Source of the DNA: an uncultured virus (IMG/VR IMGVR_UViG_3300027986_000009)
Taxonomy: Duplodnaviria; Heunggongvirae; Uroviricota; Caudoviricetes
IMG/VR virus record: IMGVR_UViG_3300027986_000009
Reading direction: 5' to 3' (one strand)
DNA length: 64,000 nucleotides
Made by a program: the position numbers and the translations under genes. Below, in pieces: positions 352-62,758 of this stretch (its first letter is position 1; each line of letters begins with the position of its first letter). Below the pieces are notes generated by a model. That model saw only the letters and a list, made by a program, of their open reading frames with translations, was not told the origin of the DNA and searched no databases.

Positions 352-365
352 GGTCCCTTTCCTTT

Positions 366-431
366 CGTCGCGATCGGCCCCTCGATAACTGCGCATCACG
401 CCAAGTCCTTACCGAGAGGCCGATCGCGACG
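366..431 (-). promoter_or_regulatory. Long RNA hairpin upstream of the pentapeptide gene RBS
   Basis: 23-nt arms at 366-388 and 409-431; both mismatches are G-U wobbles on the minus-strand transcript. Confidence 0.75.
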
Positions 432-476
432 GGCCGAGGAGACTCATTCCCCGGCCGTCGCTCCCTTGTCCGTTAT

Positions 477-2983: not shown

Positions 2984-3178
2984 CGCTTCGATCTTGCCCC
3001 TTGCGCGTGCGCAATCGACGCACATATAGCGCCACGGGTACGCGCCTGCGTGCCGCGCCTCCCCAAACGAAAGCGCGCGCTCGTGAAACATGAACGCGCG
3101 ATCTCCGGCCCGCAGACGGTGTCCGCAGATTCCGCGTACGTCGCGTTTCATCGTTGCGTTGCCTTCTTTCGTGCCCAT
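2981..3178 (-). CDS. Small hypothetical protein (CGH...CVDC)
   Basis: ORF exactly fills the space between two motif copies. Confidence 0.65.
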   Translation of the reverse strand: MGTKEGNATMKRDVRGICGHRLRAGDRAFMFHERALSFGEARHAGAYPWRYMCVDCARARGKIEA

Positions 3179-3184
3179 GACAGA

Positions 3185-3211
3185 TAGACGGCCCTCCGCG
3201 TCCTTTATTCA
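3185..3211 (-). promoter_or_regulatory. ECF-like promoter repeat copy
   Basis: TGAATA-N15-CGTCTA-TCTGTC-ATG. Confidence 0.75.
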
Positions 3212-3364
3212 TCGGTCCGATCGAATATTGCCCGTGGCCGTACGTGGATCTTTTTTCCACGCGCGACGTTTTTCCTCTCGTACCATGCGCCAAGCCTGTT
3301 TCCGCGTGAGGAAGCCTTCCCTGATTCGTCGCTCGAATTCTTGCGGAAGCGGTTTCGGCCCCAT
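3209..3364 (-). CDS. 51-aa basic protein, not in ORF track
   Basis: MGPKPLPQEFERRIREGFLTRKQAWRMVREEKRRAWKKDPRTATGNIRSDR; starts 6 nt after one motif and stops on the TGA of the next. Confidence 0.6.
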   Translation of the reverse strand: MGPKPLPQEFERRIREGFLTRKQAWRMVREEKRRAWKKDPRTATGNIRSDR

Positions 3365-3370
3365 GACAGA

Positions 3371-3397
3371 TAGACGTACCTCCCTGCGTTCTATTCA
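3371..3397 (-). promoter_or_regulatory. ECF-like promoter repeat, first copy
   Basis: TGAATA-N15-CGTCTA-TCTGTC-ATG. Confidence 0.75.
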
Positions 3398-3772: not shown

Positions 3773-4137
3773 TGGCGCTCCGGGGCTTCCTGGCGCAGGT
3801 TTGCCGGATGCGAGCACGGAAAGGGCGCCAGACGCCCGTAGGCGGGGTTGGGCAGGGGACGGCGGCTGTTGGGCGGCGGAACGTTCGCGCGCGCGCTGGC
3901 GGGCAGCCTGAGGCGGTCTGGTGCCCACTAGGACCGGAGATCTACCGAGCGACGAAGGAGCCGGAAGCGGTTTCGGGTGTAGCCACGGCGCCTGTAGGGC
4001 AGTCACGGCTACGGTCGGCGGGCTTCGCCGAGCTCCGGGGCGCCTTGGACGCCGCCGCCGTCGAGGGGACGGGGCTGTTTCTCACCGAAAAGGGCGTGCG
4101 CCTGATCCGAGAAGCCCTGAGGGCGTTCCGTGGCTGA
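3772..4137 (+). CDS. Hypothetical protein (start uncertain)
   Basis: ORF overlaps the recombinase start. Confidence 0.4.
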   Translation: MALRGFLAQVCRMRARKGRQTPVGGVGQGTAAVGRRNVRARAGGQPEAVWCPLGPEIYRATKEPEAVSGVATAPVGQSRLRSAGFAELRGALDAAAVEGTGLFLTEKGVRLIREALRAFRG

Positions 4138-5233
4138 CGAGAAACCCGACGCGCTCGCCGTCGTCCCGCCCGCTCCCCTCGCAGCGGCCCTCGATGGGCA
4201 CCGCCAGCGCGGCGCTCAGCACGCAGCACGCGCCCGGTCCAAGTCGACGCTACGGGCCTACAAGGGTGACTGGGAGCGCTTCCAAGCCTGGTGCCGCGAC
4301 CACGGCACACCCTCTCTGCCGGCGGCGCCGATCGACATCTGCGCGTACCTCACATGGCTCTCCGAGCCCACCCCCGGAGTCGTCGGCCACAAGATCGCGA
4401 CGGTGCAGCGCGCCTATGCTGCGATCCGCGTCGCCCACGAAGCCGCGGGTGCGCCGATCGGTACACTCAGGCCCGTAAGCGATGCGATGAGGAGCATCGC
4501 GCGCCGACTCGCCGAGCTTCGCGTCTATAGGGTGCAGAAGAAAGCGCTCGAAGTCCACGAGGTCATCGCCGCAGCGGCGAAGCTACCCGACACGCTCGAG
4601 GGTGCGCGTGATCGGGTTGTGCTCCTCTTCGGCTCTGCGATCGGCCAGCGACGTGCGGACATCGCTCGCGTGCGCGTCGAGGACATCGAGATCATTCCCG
4701 AAGGCTTCAAGGTCACCATCCGCATGTCCAAGACGGACCAAACGGGCAAGGGCCACACTGTTGCGGTCATCCGCGCGAAGGACCCGAGAGGTTGCCCTGT
4801 TGTGGCGGTTGAAGCTTGGCGACGTCGCGCCGAGATCGAAGACGGTTTTCTAGTGCGGCGCCTCCACCGAACGGCGGGTGTGACTCGCAGTGGCGTCACG
4901 GGCGCCACGATCGCAGCCATCGTAAAGAAGGCAGCCGAATCACTTGGGCTCGACCCCGCTCTCTACGGCGGGCATTCTCTGCGTCGAGGGCTCGTCAGCT
5001 CCGCGGCGCGCGCCGGCCGCGATCTAGACGAGATCATGAGCACGACGGGGCATGAGAGCGTAGAGCAGGTGCGCACCTACATCGATTCGAGCACAATGGT
5101 GCAGCGCGCGGCCGGGCGTGGTCTCTTCGACGTCAGCCCCGCTACGGAGATCAATGCCGCTGAGATGCCTGCCGAGGTGATCGAGCATCCCACTACAGGA
5201 CAGCCGCTCACTAAGAAGAGAAAAAGAAATTGA
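4130..5233 (+). CDS. Tyrosine recombinase, Cre-like integrase/resolvase
   Basis: SAM-like N-terminus (STLRAYKGDWERF), RDR..GQRRADI, SKTDQ, GHSLRRG, TGH..VRTY catalytic set. Confidence 0.95.
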   Translation: MADEKPDALAVVPPAPLAAALDGHRQRGAQHAARARSKSTLRAYKGDWERFQAWCRDHGTPSLPAAPIDICAYLTWLSEPTPGVVGHKIATVQRAYAAIRVAHEAAGAPIGTLRPVSDAMRSIARRLAELRVYRVQKKALEVHEVIAAAAKLPDTLEGARDRVVLLFGSAIGQRRADIARVRVEDIEIIPEGFKVTIRMSKTDQTGKGHTVAVIRAKDPRGCPVVAVEAWRRRAEIEDGFLVRRLHRTAGVTRSGVTGATIAAIVKKAAESLGLDPALYGGHSLRRGLVSSAARAGRDLDEIMSTTGHESVEQVRTYIDSSTMVQRAAGRGLFDVSPATEINAAEMPAEVIEHPTTGQPLTKKRKRN

Positions 5234-10758: not shown

Positions 10759-15894
<5,136 letters not shown>

Positions 15895-20579: not shown

Positions 20580-22109
20580 TTAGGCGACGCGCTTGCTACG
20601 CCACGAAGGCGTACCGAGAACGACCTTGGGGATCGGCGAGGGCCGGAAGTTCGGTACGGACGCAGGCGGCAAACCTGCAGCACGCGTCGGATTCGCCTGA
20701 GGAGGCACGCTGGTGTTGGCCGTGACGCCCGGAGCGATCGGATCCTGTCTCGGCCTTGCCGAGTTGGTGCAGGGCAGGCCCGAGGCGCAGTTGGCGCAGC
20801 AGCCGCCGATGCGCCGGCCGACTTGCTGGGGGATGCCCTGCAAGGCGATCGGAGCGATGGCCGGAAGCACCTGGTTGGTGCTGGTGGACGCGGTCTTCGC
20901 CGCGTTGGATGCGCTGATCTCGTCGGCGTAGAGGCGCATGCCGGTCGCGCCCTTGCCGGTGAGCATGACCATGAGGTCCGTGGCTCCCTTGCCGAGCGTG
21001 CGGAGCAGCGCGCCGATGCCGAAGAACTGCAGCGACGATCGCGCCATCGGGCCCTTGACGAAGCCCGCGAGGATGATGGGTACCGCAGCGACGCCGAGGC
21101 CCGCACCCCAACGCTTGATGCCCATCGGGGCCGCAACCGCCTGGTAGTTGTACACCTGGCCGGCAGCCGGAGTGTCGAGCGAGCCGCCCTGATTGCCCGC
21201 TGTAGCGGAGCCTCCCAGGGCGTGCGTCGCGAGGAAGCGATCCAGTACGTCGGCTCCGACGTAGCCGAGGACGCCCGTGATGCCTCCGACGACGAGCTCG
21301 CCGCCCGTCAGCGGATTCTCGAGGGCGCGCCCTCGGCGCCGACGCGGAGAAACGAGCGTCACCCGACGTCGCTTGCCAGCGATCCGGCGCGTTCGGCGGC
21401 GAACGCGCGGCCTGCGACGGTAGATGTGCGTGCCGCGCGGATCGCGCGCCCGGCTGCGCCGACGGCGCCTGCGGGGAGCCGCCGCGCGCGCCCGACGACG
21501 CCTTCGGCGGGGAGCTTCGACCGCGCGCGCCCGACGCCGACGCCGACGCGGAGCTACCGTTCGCCGCGCCCGACGCCTTCGACGCTTCGGTGCCTCCACC
21601 GCGCGCGCCCGACGCCGACGATGGCGACGCACCTTGCGCGGCGCTTCCGCCGCCATGGCGCGCGCCCGACGCCGACGCCGATGCGACGACCGCTTCACGA
21701 ACTTCCCGCCCGGCCCTCGCTTGGGCATCCGACGCTTTCGAGCCATCTTCGTTGTCTCCTTCGCTGCGGTCACACCGCGGAAATACGTCTTGTGACGCCC
21801 TGCCTTGCGTGCACGTTTCCAAGCGACGCCAGCGCAATAGCTCTTGCGTCGTTTGCCCTTGAACTTTTTCGGAGCCGAGCGCTCGCAATCGCGCTCGTAG
21901 CGATCGAGATCGCGCTTGAGCGACTTCGACCCGGGCGCACCCTTGCGCACCGCGATGCCCTTGCTACGCCGCCGTCGAGCGCCTTCGTAGACGACCCGGG
22001 CCGAAGCCGCATGGTTGTCCCGATTTGCGCTCGTTCTCGACGCGTAGGCGGCATAGTCCATCTCGAGTTGAGACCTCCCGGCGGAGACCTCCTCGACGGA
22101 CTTGCGCAA
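20580..22109 (-). CDS. Arg-rich protamine-like protein fused to membrane domain
   Basis: RRRRRRARAVEAP repeats, three hydrophobic helices, CCANC cluster; alternative start at 21746 with AAGGAG. Confidence 0.85.
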   Translation of the reverse strand: MRKSVEEVSAGRSQLEMDYAAYASRTSANRDNHAASARVVYEGARRRRSKGIAVRKGAPGSKSLKRDLDRYERDCERSAPKKFKGKRRKSYCAGVAWKRARKAGRHKTYFRGVTAAKETTKMARKRRMPKRGPGGKFVKRSSHRRRRRARAMAAEAPRKVRRHRRRRARAVEAPKRRRRRARRTVAPRRRRRRARAVEAPRRRRRRARAAAPRRRRRRSRARDPRGTHIYRRRPRVRRRTRRIAGKRRRVTLVSPRRRRGRALENPLTGGELVVGGITGVLGYVGADVLDRFLATHALGGSATAGNQGGSLDTPAAGQVYNYQAVAAPMGIKRWGAGLGVAAVPIILAGFVKGPMARSSLQFFGIGALLRTLGKGATDLMVMLTGKGATGMRLYADEISASNAAKTASTSTNQVLPAIAPIALQGIPQQVGRRIGGCCANCASGLPCTNSARPRQDPIAPGVTANTSVPPQANPTRAAGLPPASVPNFRPSPIPKVVLGTPSWRSKRVA

Positions 22110-35270: not shown

Positions 35271-35797
35271 GCAGGATGTGCTTCGGCGCCGACCAATTCG
35301 TCCCCCCACTGCGTCCACCCGGTCCTCGCTCGCCTGGCAAATAGCTCCGCGTACGGCCCCGGCGTCAACCTCTCCACCAGCTCGTAGAAAGCTTCCGGCT
35401 TCTCGGAGTGTTCTCCCGTCGGCGCCTCGAACACCGACCGAATCGACAGACACGCCGGCTTGAACCGACCCCGGCGCGCCACGATGCAGGTTTCGTGTGC
35501 CGCGCGCACGTAGCGACCCATCCCGAAGTGCTCCTTGCCGCTCGCCGTCATCTTGCGCCAGACGATCTCCGACTTCGGTTCGAACCCCCACGCCCGGACG
35601 ACGGAGTACGCCTCTTCGACCTGCGAGCTGACGCGCCATAGCAAGAGGAGCGCGTCCGGCAGCATCGGCGGAAGCGGAAACTTGCGGATCTGGTCCAGCG
35701 AGAACACGCCGTAGTTTTTCTCGGCACCGCGCGAAGCGCCTGGCAATTTATCTCCGAACGACCACGGAGGATCAGCCACCAACACTCGGAACATCAT
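35267..35797 (-). CDS. MT-A70 family N6-adenine methyltransferase
   Basis: VLVADPPW, HSEKPE, ELFARR..GW..WGDE. Confidence 0.95.
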   Translation of the reverse strand: MMFRVLVADPPWSFGDKLPGASRGAEKNYGVFSLDQIRKFPLPPMLPDALLLLWRVSSQVEEAYSVVRAWGFEPKSEIVWRKMTASGKEHFGMGRYVRAAHETCIVARRGRFKPACLSIRSVFEAPTGEHSEKPEAFYELVERLTPGPYAELFARRARTGWTQWGDELVGAEAHPA

Positions 35798-36060
35798 TCG
35801 GGCTCCCACAAATCCGTCACCTTCCACCAAAGCCTCTGCCACCACGGCGCCCGCAGCACCCGCAAGAGATCGCGCATCTCCGTTATGGTGATGAAGTTAG
35901 CCTGCCTGGCTTCGACGATGAGCGACTGCTTGCCTCCAAGCTCGCCGTAGAATTGACTCTTGATCCAGTTCTGGCCGGGGCACATTTCGAGCAGATGCGC
36001 GAAGGCGGCGATGCGGGGACCCTCGAGACGGAGCAGTCTATTTTGCTCGATCTCGTTCAT
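35794..36060 (-). CDS. Hypothetical protein
   Basis: Coupled ORF. Confidence 0.6.
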   Translation of the reverse strand: MNEIEQNRLLRLEGPRIAAFAHLLEMCPGQNWIKSQFYGELGGKQSLIVEARQANFITITEMRDLLRVLRAPWWQRLWWKVTDLWEPE

Positions 36061-36470
36061 TGCCGCTTCGTCAGATGCCTGACGTACCGGGTCATCGCCG
36101 AGCTCATGACCTCGAAGGCCGTCGTGAAGCGTTCCACGGCGGCGGCCAAGCGCTCCCGCGAGAGCACCTCACGCTCCCTCAACGGATCGGGAGCGCTCGC
36201 AATTCTCTTCTGCGCGTCGGCTTCCGCCTCCGCCAACTTGGCGATCTCGGGCGCCGCGTGCTCGGCGCATAGCGCTCGGCCGGGTCGCACCGACACCCAG
36301 ACGTGCTTGCCGGCTTCGACCTGCTTGACGTCGGGGCACTCGATGCAGTGAATCTTGAGCGGCGCTCCGACGATCCACCAGCCCGCGAAAGAAGACCACG
36401 GATCGAGCAGGTCTTCCATCAGGACGCGGGACTCTTCTTTTTTGGTTGCTCCTGCCATTTTCTCCTCCAT
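36057..36470 (-). CDS. Hypothetical Zn-binding protein
   Basis: CIEC...C..H; RBS GGAGG. Confidence 0.65.
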   Translation of the reverse strand: MEEKMAGATKKEESRVLMEDLLDPWSSFAGWWIVGAPLKIHCIECPDVKQVEAGKHVWVSVRPGRALCAEHAAPEIAKLAEAEADAQKRIASAPDPLREREVLSRERLAAAVERFTTAFEVMSSAMTRYVRHLTKRQ

Positions 36471-36535
36471 TAGAGGATACGATCAACGAATGCGCTCACG
36501 CTCATGGCGGCCGACCATTCGTCAATCGTATCCAG

Positions 36536-36610
36536 TAGCGGGCCCGGGTAACGACCCCGGCTGCCTTCTCCACGTCGCGCGTCGAGAAGGTGTTCCCATG
36601 ACGGCCCGCA
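36536..36610 (-). ncRNA. tRNA-like (tmRNA TLD-like) structured RNA
   Basis: Acceptor GCGGGC/GCCCGC; T-arm CCGGG-GTCGTTA-CCCGG; central helix CCTTCTC/GAGAAGG; unpaired GG-containing D-loop. Confidence 0.6.
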
Positions 36611-36637
36611 TGCGCGGCGCCTACGCGCCGCATCGAT

Positions 36638-37153
36638 TCAGAATGGAGGCTTCTGCCCCCCGCTCCCGTTCTCCCCACCACTCAGAGCCGATCGACCCAA
36701 AGTAGCAGCGACGACGGCCGCGAACTCCTTACCTCCGCCGGGCATCGGGTTCGAAGAATGAAACACGCCGCCGCCAGAGAGGATCTGAACGCGCAGCCTC
36801 CACTTGCTGTCGAAAGCCTCGTACGTGAGAGACGTATCGACCTCGTTGCTGTCGATCCCAGCAAGCGTTACGAGATCCCTGCATCCGAGAGCACGCAACC
36901 GTTCCTCGGAGTACGGGGCGGCGTCCTTGCTGAAATAAAGCGGAGACACGTACGTTCGCCCGAGATCCGGCAGGTACAGGTGCACGAGCAGTTCGGGGCT
37001 GCCATTTTTGCTTCGCCCGAACTCGTGAGGGGCTCCTGTCGCGTCAGGTGTCACGGCCTTGGCTTTGTAGGTGCCTTCTTTGGGCTCGGTGGGTTTCGGG
37101 CCGAGCTCGGGAGGGCGCGGCGCTTGGGGGATCGGCGGTGTATTGCTCATCAC
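36638..37153 (-). CDS. Single-stranded DNA-binding protein (phage type)
   Basis: Next to Sak4-like gene; EGTYKAK, SKNG; Gly linker and C-terminal PPF. Confidence 0.65.
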   Translation of the reverse strand: MMSNTPPIPQAPRPPELGPKPTEPKEGTYKAKAVTPDATGAPHEFGRSKNGSPELLVHLYLPDLGRTYVSPLYFSKDAAPYSEERLRALGCRDLVTLAGIDSNEVDTSLTYEAFDSKWRLRVQILSGGGVFHSSNPMPGGGKEFAAVVAATLGRSALSGGENGSGGQKPPF

Positions 37154-37162
37154 ATTTCTCCT

Positions 37163-38083
37163 TTATGCAACCTTCTCAACATTCTCTTCTTTGGGTGAGC
37201 GGACCTCGTTCAGTCGGATCTGCACCCGGTTGAACGCGTCCACCAGCCCCCGCGGGTACTCCTTGAGCCAGTCGCGGACCTGCTTCTCGTAGGCTTTGTC
37301 CGCGATCTCGGCGAGCATCGAGTCCAAGTCCTTTTTCATCTGACCGCCCCGAGCATCGTCTTCCTTGACGGCCTTCACGAACTCGTCCCAGCTCAAAGGG
37401 ATCCGTTCCGGAAATAGCGTCGTACCGCGAGCCTTGGCGTCATAGGCCGGCGTCCGGCGCGTATAAATCCATCTCTCGCCCGTCGTGGTCGCCTTGACCG
37501 GCTTATTCTTCTCGCCCGCCAGCGTCACGTTCTCTCGCGCGAAGAGCACGTAGTCAGACCACCCGCGGAGCAGATGCGCCAACGGTTTGCGCGTGGCGAG
37601 CTCGAAGCGTTCGTAGCCTGGGCCCGTGGGATCCTCGAACTTCTTCACGTTGGCGTGCGAGATGAGGATGACGCCCTTACCCTTGAGCCAAACGCGCTCA
37701 AGCTGCGACAGCAGCCGCCGCCATTCGAGCACAGCGACGTCGTCACCCTTGTTGTAGCCCCCCTCGTACTTTGAGATCGTGCTCCCCGGAAAGAGTCGCG
37801 CGTAGCTCATCGACTCGAAGTCCGAGACCGCATCGAGCGCTACGTTGTCGCACTTGATCTCTCCGTTCTCGATCGCCACCAGCCACTCGTACGTCTCGTC
37901 CCAGCTCTCGATGAGAACGCGATCGACGTTGTACTTGAAGCTGCCCTTGTTCGCATCGAGAAAGAAGACGTTGGGGGCGCCTGCGGCGAACCCAGTCTTG
38001 CCGACCCCGTCAAATCCGTAGACGACGACGCGAGGAGGTCGGTCGACCTTGCCCTTGAGGATTCGGTTCATGTCAACGGCCAT
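37163..38083 (-). CDS. Sak4-like AAA ATPase (ssDNA annealing protein)
   Basis: VVYGFDGVGKT, VALDAVS, GGYNKG, LISHA, PAYDAKAR. Confidence 0.9.
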   Translation of the reverse strand: MAVDMNRILKGKVDRPPRVVVYGFDGVGKTGFAAGAPNVFFLDANKGSFKYNVDRVLIESWDETYEWLVAIENGEIKCDNVALDAVSDFESMSYARLFPGSTISKYEGGYNKGDDVAVLEWRRLLSQLERVWLKGKGVILISHANVKKFEDPTGPGYERFELATRKPLAHLLRGWSDYVLFARENVTLAGEKNKPVKATTTGERWIYTRRTPAYDAKARGTTLFPERIPLSWDEFVKAVKEDDARGGQMKKDLDSMLAEIADKAYEKQVRDWLKEYPRGLVDAFNRVQIRLNEVRSPKEENVEKVA

Positions 38084-38261
38084 CGGTTTCTGCTCCAATC
38101 TTGTGCCACCCATTGCAGGGGACCATGAGTTCGCTGACGGCCGCATCTTCGCGTTGGGTAGATTCGTTTAGTAGTACGACGTCGCTTCTTCCGTTCTGCT
38201 CGAACCGAATCACCTTGTACCGTCTTCCACGAGGACTTACGTACACATCTCCTACATTCAT
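38073..38261 (-). CDS. Small hypothetical protein
   Basis: Coupled ORF. Confidence 0.55.
   Translation of the reverse strand: MNVGDVYVSPRGRRYKVIRFEQNGRSDVVLLNESTQREDAAVSELMVPCNGWHKIGAETDGR

Positions 38262-61198: not shown

Positions 61199-62758
<1,560 letters not shown>

Follow-up and report, generated by a model that had tools for sequence, protein, structure and literature searches.

The stretch of DNA analysed in the present work, referred to here as the window, comprises 64,000 nucleotides of an uncultured virus of the Caudoviricetes (IMG/VR record IMGVR_UViG_3300027986_000009), a soil phage whose best DNA match among sequencing runs is a soil metagenome, no RNA run being listed among the matches. 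The minus strand of the window carries a module of early/recombination genes which follow one another in the order RNase T-type exonuclease, ParB-like protein, PD-(D/E)XK exonuclease, Sak4-like ssDNA annealing protein (AAA_24; 37163..38146, minus strand; Pfam 8.2e-30, phrog_124 3e-33) and a protein of 171 aa, after which the operon shows a gap of ~180 nt. Beyond the gap, the module continues with two small ORFs, an MT-A70 methyltransferase, an HTH regulator and RadC. Within the gap lies an element of 75 nt (36536..36610), on the same (minus) strand as the flanking genes. Elsewhere, the window codes for a tyrosine integrase (4130-5233), a DnaB-type helicase and collagen-repeat proteins.

The gene upstream of the gap (P0001; 36638..37153, minus strand), whose product ends in ...KPPF, had been taken for an ssb gene in the original prediction. 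No sequence family was matched by this protein, and its low-confidence structural model (pLDDT 56.7) shows its best resemblance to the OB-fold ssDNA-binding protein PrgE (E 3.1e-4, TM 0.39-0.50). This weak fold match and the position of the gene after the Sak4-like gene make an SSB-like protein plausible, if weakly supported. The gene downstream of the gap (P0002/P0003; 36057..36458, minus strand) belongs to no family. Its most likely start is the ATG at 36458, behind the Shine-Dalgarno sequence GGAGGA (36468-36463), which yields 133 aa (137 aa if the frame is taken to 36470); this form, starting with the second ATG, is also the one given in the protein collection. A large protein collection contains a single homolog of P0002 (P0004, 69% identity), encoded on a contig of 944 nt, and no relatives were found in viral contigs.

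Two further hairpins share the gap with the element, both on the minus strand. The first, H1 (36613..36632; UGCGGCGC-GUAG-GCGCCGCG), is apparent in the sequence and in the fold of the gap. It begins 5 nt past the upstream stop codon, ends 2 nt ahead of the element and is followed by no U tract. H1 resembles the two acceptor strands of the element (UGCGGGC / GCCCGCU) joined by a GUAG loop; judged from its letters it could be a collapsed second tRNA copy or a GC-rich coincidence, and it is not detected by R2, the covariance model described below. The second hairpin, H4 (36475..36533), is built of 18-nt arms (36533-36516 and 36492-36475) around a 23-nt loop and ends 6 nt before the downstream Shine-Dalgarno sequence. 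Its 18 bp include two non-Watson-Crick pairs, which are G.U on the transcribed strand and A.C on the other strand. The fold of 36440-36660, which holds H1, the element and H4, reaches -101.1 kcal/mol (z -3.44, 0 of 200 shuffles), and three other gaps of the operon are unstructured (z -1.06, -0.32 and -0.51). A promoter and terminator scan of 35500-37500 found nothing in the gap and did not call H1 a terminator.

C4 RNA is a Y-shaped molecule which acts through its loops, and a C4-type antisense scheme was considered for the element. Complementarity of 6 bp to H4 can be found by eye both from the T loop of the element and from its linker; it was judged, by eye and without computation, to lie at chance level, and the scheme was rejected.

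Repeats and stable folds also occur in other parts of the window. Positions 1-322 form a tandem array with a 15-nt period and ~20 copies, which runs off the window start. The 2-kb region upstream of the integrase gene contains two sets of repeated motifs, GGATAGACGG...ATTCA (2213-2245, 2474-2506 and 2954-2986) and TTTCG..CCCATGACAGATAGACG... (3167-3211 and 3353-3397), which, from their sequence and their place near the integrase, may be operators or else arm-type sites for the integrase. Two very long minus-strand ORFs with collagen-triple-helix repeats, one of 1432 aa (10783-15081; Pfam Collagen 2.4e-100, 8 stretches) and one of 519 aa (61199-62758), are probably tail-fibre-like proteins and contribute most direct repeats of the window. 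The most stable 75-nt folds of the window are located at 359-439 (minus strand) and 21260-21700; positions 366-431 form a 23-bp near-perfect hairpin, and a GC-rich (75-88%) repeat run occupies 21.3-21.7 kb, inside a 509-aa ORF.

Architecture of the element

Read in the 5' to 3' direction of the minus strand, the element consists of U1 (36610), a 5' acceptor strand GCGGGC (36609-36604), a 13-nt linker CGTCATGGGAACA with GGG in the place of the D arm (36603-36591), a central hairpin CCTTCTC-GACGCGCGACGTG-GAGAAGG with 7 bp and a 13-nt loop (36590-36564), a CAG spacer (36563-36561), a T arm CCGGG-GTCGTTA-CCCGG with a 5-bp stem (36560-36544), a 3' acceptor strand GCCCGC (36543-36538), U72 (36537) and the discriminator A73 (36536). 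The segments, length, strand and intergenic location that had been predicted are all found in place in the sequence, and the Y shape is reproduced by RNAfold. None of the 18 stem pairs (6 in the acceptor stem, 7 in the central hairpin and 5 in the T stem) is broken, and the acceptor and T stems together give a helix of 11-12 bp in sequence and fold.

The absences listed in the original prediction hold as well: position 3:70 is C-G, A73 is followed by an encoded CTG and not CCA, and the element contains neither a 7-nt anticodon loop nor a CAU. An alternative inner loop of 7 nt can be drawn, with C33, and needs a G.G mismatch in the stem; the central 13-nt loop (GACGCGCGACGUG) can form an inner stem of 3 bp (ACG/CGT). 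Two of the predicted peculiarities have to be reworded. The D region is indeed a linker of 13 nt, but it is not strictly stemless, as up to 2 bp (GU/AC) are possible by eye; the 1:72 mismatch is present, as U.U, but it is the hallmark of a phage initiator-type tRNA family and not a defect. In the T loop (GUCGUUA), U55 and C56 are kept, while position 54 is G and position 58 is U.

The minimum free energy of the element is -38.0 kcal/mol (z -2.60, equalled by 1 of 200 shuffles). Among the 42,618 sliding 75-nt windows of the whole stretch, 275 reach -38 or below, and a closed stem of at least 6 bp around two or three branches is formed in 287 of them, at 154 separate places, of which the element ranks 4th. 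By energy and shape alone, the fold is not beyond chance.

Standard tRNA finders pass over the element. ARAGORN and Rfam, both proposed as checks in the original prediction, report no tRNA or tmRNA there at gathering, default, -ps or 80% thresholds: ARAGORN finds no tmRNA gene in the window and makes 94 calls there at 80%, none of them at the element, and Rfam at gathering gives no match in the whole window. At -ps60, a tRNA-Arg(gcg) at 36535-36606 overlaps the element as one of 633 calls in the 64 kb window, and ARAGORN -m -ps60 gives no tmRNA match at the element. With Rfam at E up to 10, the region 36450-36700 matches just hya (E 7) and naRNA4 (E 6.9), and neither RF00005, whose gathering threshold of 29 bits is not reached by the element, nor any tmRNA family. 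A short archaeal-type intron within the element was also considered and rejected; no excision yields CAU, and the gene content is that of a bacterial phage.

Kinship with phage tRNA-Met(CAU) genes

IMG/VR was searched with the pattern CCGGG-N7-CCCGGGCCCGCTA, made of the T stem and 3' acceptor strand of the element with the T loop left free. The search yielded 17 loci, of which 16 are tRNA-Met(CAU) genes (L018-L031, L033 and L034; alignment A5) and the seventeenth (L032) has no 5' half. A reversed control pattern gave nine loci, in which ARAGORN finds 0 tRNAs and the best R2 score is 11.7 bits. The 16 family genes are 69-73 nt long and exhibit a 5' strand [C/T]GCGGG[C/T], a short variable region and A73; in L028 the 5' strand reads GCGGGT and pairs as U.G. 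All of them hold CAT in the anticodon loop, which is mostly CTCATAA, and CCA is encoded in six.

The family is made of real tRNAs. Its 14 distinct sequences show cloverleaf pairing in 97.7% of cells, and compensatory changes occur in 8 pairs, comprising all 3 of the D stem and all 5 of the anticodon stem, a level attained by 0 of 500 shuffles; no variation is seen in the acceptor and T stems, as those bases served to select the set. Facing U72, every sequence has C or U at position 1. An unpaired 1:72 characterises the initiator tRNAs of bacteria (PMC5389676). Their three anticodon-stem G-C pairs are retained only in part by the family, 29:41 in 10 of the 14 sequences, 30:40 in 12 and 31:39 in 6. 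C35, A36 and T37 are invariant (14/14) and A58 is present in 13/14; the element has neither the triplet nor A58.

Many of these genes escape the usual tools. ARAGORN calls tRNA-Met in 6 of the 17 loci and misses 10 of the 16 family genes, while the Rfam tRNA model scores 9 of the 17 loci at 29 bits or more and one at 27.7 (range among family members, 27.7-43.1 bits). Three genes (L018, L023 and L034) lie below detection by both, and the best Rfam match for L023 is the Tymovirus tRNA-like element (33.2 bits against a threshold of 40). Atypical phage tRNA(CAU) genes include L018, L023, L026-L028, L031, L033, L034 and L091. Six atypical genes form a group with the T loop CGCGATT/CGCGACT and a D loop devoid of GG; L023 and L091 have a 13-nt D region in common (G[GA]GCC[AG]GTGCTCA), and the T loop of L018 is GGCAGTA. 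The 8-kb flanks of five family members code for no protein in common with the window.

A covariance model of the family (R2), with the element left out of the training set, was run on 100,836 bases and gave a sole match under E 1, at 36536-36610, in global alignment (34.6 bits, E 2.5e-5; next score 13.2 bits); the match is partly circular, with 18 element bases having served as the query, and the T stem, 3' acceptor strand, U72 and A73 are identical by construction. The query does not determine the 16:1 proportion of tRNAs among the database instances, the presence of the 5' strand at the distance expected for a tRNA, the pyrimidine in position 1 or the total length. The family members themselves score 58.9-86.8 bits, and in the alignment of the element the D arm is deleted and the anticodon loop becomes a 17-nt insert. 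In the reciprocal direction, a model built from the element alone (R1) was applied to L018, L021, L023 and L026 and to 20 of the 24 loci obtained with a looser pattern (the 4 omitted are duplicate contigs). Nine tRNA(CAU) genes were matched, led by L086 (35.1 bits), L018 (30.5) and L023 (30.2), and none of the 15 non-tRNA loci. It is the contrast between 16 of 17 pattern loci and 0 of 9 control loci being tRNA genes, together with the R2 match, that lifts the element above chance; homology does so, and not the fold. The predicted tRNA-shaped RNA, reduced to its acceptor/T-arm half, can thus be traced to the phage initiator-type tRNA(CAU) family.

The likeness is concentrated at the two ends of the molecule. 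The acceptor strands GCGGGC/GCCCGC, the pyrimidine at position 1 facing U72, A73 and the T stem CCGGG/CCCGG are identical to those of the family, and C56 and the short variable region are alike. The 43 nt in between cannot be aligned with the corresponding parts of the family genes and resemble none of them significantly (z -1.4 to 0.6), with the exception of that of L018 (z 2.17, 10 of 500 shuffles as good). The element is of similar length (75 nt as against 69-73 nt), and it lacks the CAU, the 7-nt anticodon loop, the 3-bp D stem and A58 of the family. It therefore appears, on comparison of the sequences, to be derived from the family and not a member of it, since the 7-nt loop with CAU and the covarying D and anticodon stems are absent. 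The closest body plan is that of L023, which contains a 13-nt D region, a 7-bp anticodon stem, a 3-nt variable region and an intact CCCAUAA loop; D regions of 13 nt are seen by eye in L091 and L086 too. Since L023 has the same D region length, 7-bp stem and 3-nt spacer, the element reads as an L023-type body whose anticodon loop was swapped for 13 other bases.

The element can further be set against several known systems. It shares with bacterial initiator tRNA-fMet the unpaired 1:72 atop a G/C-rich acceptor stem and A73; the anticodon arm having been replaced, neither its three G-C pairs nor the CAU can be scored. D-armless mitochondrial tRNAs carry a short linker for the D arm and a lengthened anticodon stem, yet they keep a 7-nt anticodon loop and decode; the linker and long stem of the element are alike, but it has no 7-nt loop and is non-decoding. 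The label originally given to the element, that of a tmRNA tRNA-like domain, draws on the acceptor stem and T arm, a reduced D region and a helix at the place of the anticodon arm. It does not stand: the element lacks G3.U70, CCA and a canonical T loop with U54 and A58, no tmRNA is called by ARAGORN or Rfam, and the central helix is a closed 27-nt hairpin which does not lead to pseudoknots or a tag reading frame. Non-tRNA substrates of RNase P, which include phage C4 RNA (of P1/P7), phage M3 RNA and operon mRNAs (PMC11143913), resemble the element as short structured RNAs in a phage or operon transcript, with an acceptor-like helix usable by RNase P; the element matches no described family of these in Rfam at E up to 10. 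The literature searched contained no account of a phage operon with an element that derives from an initiator tRNA and has no anticodon, and the element is classed as a tRNA-derived or pseudo-tRNA type, found here in a single lineage.

Distribution among relatives and samples

Relatives of P0001 with 70-77% identity number four in IMG/VR and nine in JGI metagenomes, and the genome collection holds no relatives of P0001 or of the Sak4-like protein. The element is missing from all 13 of these loci. In each, the stop codon of the P0001 relative is followed directly, with no gap, by an unrelated ORF of ~96 aa. Nucleotide homology to one of them (L004) stops at 36717, and gene order differs beyond that point. 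R1 found no copy in the related loci and three whole viral records of relatives, where its best score (18.1 bits, E 0.12) falls inside a coding region and has broken pairs. The conservation and covariation downstream of ssb genes that had been anticipated are thus not found, and no covariation is measurable for the element because its relatives lack it and the collections searched yielded no other copy in which the middle has been remodelled in this way. Lack of conservation in relatives and a match to an ordinary decayed tRNA had been named beforehand as outcomes that would speak against the prediction; the former is observed, and the latter in the modified form of a match to a decayed or remodelled tRNA, so that both count against it in part.

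Further searches gave consistently negative results. An exact 26-mer of the element has 0 matches in IMG/VR, the 17-mer of the T arm has 3 chance matches, all in coding sequence, and the pattern of the central hairpin yields 22 loci, all plain hairpins (best R1 score, 22.6 bits, in a match that lacks the T arm). Blastn of 36000-37300 against phages and plasmids gave no match, and against isolated phages the element gave chance pieces of 21-38 nt only and the L021 tRNA nothing.

The element does occur in a sequencing run of a different study (X3), where a 151-nt contig matches 36526-36653 with three differences, none listed away from piece ends. The contig retains H1 with the element and diverges from the window below 36526, ~10 nt past A73, and H4 is absent from this variant. 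H1 and the element hence move as a unit with the 3' part of the upstream gene, separately from H4. This copy is nearly identical and is therefore uninformative on selection. In run X2, the only piece in this region extends across 36595-36631 with 5 differences and has diverging flanks, and X2 and X4 leave much of 36420-36667 uncovered.

The relatives possess a hairpin of their own. In eight of eight distinct relatives, a stem of 16-18 bp (GGAGGTCGACGTC...GACGTCGACCTCC) is located ~20 nt past the stop of the SSB-like gene (L001:3032-3101, L003:2529-2598, L004:3032-3101, L008:3026-3095 and four more loci), within the opening part of the following ORF (peptide ...VDVADLDDVDLL...). Most of it does not vary, and 2 of 24 pairs show compensatory change, so that RNA or DNA structure and peptide constraint are indistinguishable.

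Origin and possible roles

The element is, in our view, probably (though well short of certainly) a non-decoding, remodelled derivative of a phage initiator-type tRNA-Met(CAU), which is either an inert relic or retains a residual processing role. The top half of the tRNA, namely the acceptor stem, the unpaired U.U at 1:72, A73, the 5-bp T stem and U55-C56, would have been kept. The decoding half would have been lost, the D arm giving way to the 13-nt linker and the anticodon position to a 7-bp stem and a 13-nt loop with no CAU. Methionyl-tRNA synthetase depends on the CAU anticodon, and thus the element should be neither charged nor codon-reading.

The element is probably co-transcribed with the recombination genes, since it lies on the same strand as the genes around it. 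The acceptor/T-arm helix could still be recognised by the enzymes that process tRNA ends, RNase P cleaving ahead of U1 and the 3' side being trimmed after A73. The transcript would then be severed between the SSB-like gene and the next gene, leaving an upstream mRNA that ends in H1 and a downstream mRNA that begins with H4. By analogy with the non-tRNA substrates of RNase P, the element may be such an RNase P/3'-processing site; the T loop, devoid of U54 and A58, speaks against that role. An inert relic, left at a mosaic junction, is as likely; its absence from the 13 related loci, the mosaic junction itself and the damaged T loop argue for it. Against plain neutral decay stands the fact that 18 of 18 stem pairs are intact though the middle is unrecognisable; when the middle is shuffled, a perfect stem of at least 7 bp appears in only 100 of 5,000 shuffles and an equally low energy in 68 of 1,000.

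Another explanation is that the top half has been selected as a tRNA mimic, which would be released, CCA-tailed and employed to bind or sequester a host factor recognising the acceptor stem, such as a tRNA 3'-end-modifying anti-phage toxin or an initiator-specific enzyme. We hold this to be unlikely. The perfect stems, identical to those of real tRNAs, the replacement of the decoding half by a clean 7-bp hairpin and the unchanged element of the X3 sample, with its different downstream flank, are what such a mimic would lead one to expect, but the element is found in a single lineage with no covariation, U54 and A58 are missing from its T loop, it has no encoded CCA, and the X3 copy is too similar to give any word on selection. 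A sponge for an acceptor-stem toxin is conceivable by analogy: anti-phage toxins that read the acceptor stem exist, although they accept minihelix substrates poorly (PMC11245113). The role originally proposed, that of a decoy for anticodon nucleases (phage tRNAs and these nucleases are treated in PMC10264068), is unlikely because the element has no anticodon loop to cut.

The ends of tRNA genes also matter at the level of DNA, tRNA 3' ends being common integration sites. The element may accordingly be pictured as a recombination hot spot or a former attachment site at a tRNA 3' end, a marker of a module junction whose RNA shape is incidental. The homology of the relatives stops near the end of the upstream gene, with different genes downstream, and X3 diverges shortly after A73, both of which fit this picture; on the other hand, no direct repeat of the tRNA 3' end, such as an att-like duplicate, occurs elsewhere in the window, and the sole integrase gene (4130-5233) is ~31 kb off. 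Its chances appear slender.

It is very improbable that the element is a chance GC-rich hairpin cluster, or a terminator deprived of its U tract, with no tRNA kinship. A fold z of -2.6, the 154 Y-shaped places in the window, the 94 ARAGORN calls at 80% with 0 at this position and the lack of an Rfam tRNA would all be in keeping with chance. This reading is disfavoured by the 16 of 17 instances of the 3' pattern that are tRNA(CAU) genes, against 0 of 9 in the control, by the complementary 5' strand at tRNA distance and by the R2 match (E 2.5e-5). Scarcely credible, finally, is a tmRNA-like domain that serves as a decoy for SmpB, or an unusual tRNA that still works, for instance the tRNA-Arg(GCG) drawn by ARAGORN at 60%: the acceptor stem and T arm, the GG in the linker and U55-C56 of the T loop recall these RNAs, but G3.U70 and any tmRNA match are missing, the central hairpin is closed, and the tRNA-Arg at 36535-36606 belongs to 633 calls that amount to noise and requires a G.G mismatch and C at 33.

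A broader and rather improbable conjecture is that phages repeatedly turn spare initiator-type tRNA genes into anticodon-less top-half RNAs, which in the present case would be excised from the operon by host tRNA-processing enzymes. The 75-nt product, with the unpaired 1:72 acceptor end of the initiator, would then serve in the punctuation and stabilisation of the flanking mRNAs, capped by H1 at the 3' end and by H4 at the 5' end, or in the titration of a host factor or toxin that reads the acceptor end.

If the element is a relic only, its value is mainly one of annotation, as standard tRNA finders miss it along with several real atypical phage tRNA(CAU) genes. If its top half is under selection, it would represent the equivalent, in a virus of bacteria, of tRNA-like processing signals, or a new kind of tRNA mimic for which an initiator tRNA supplied the material.
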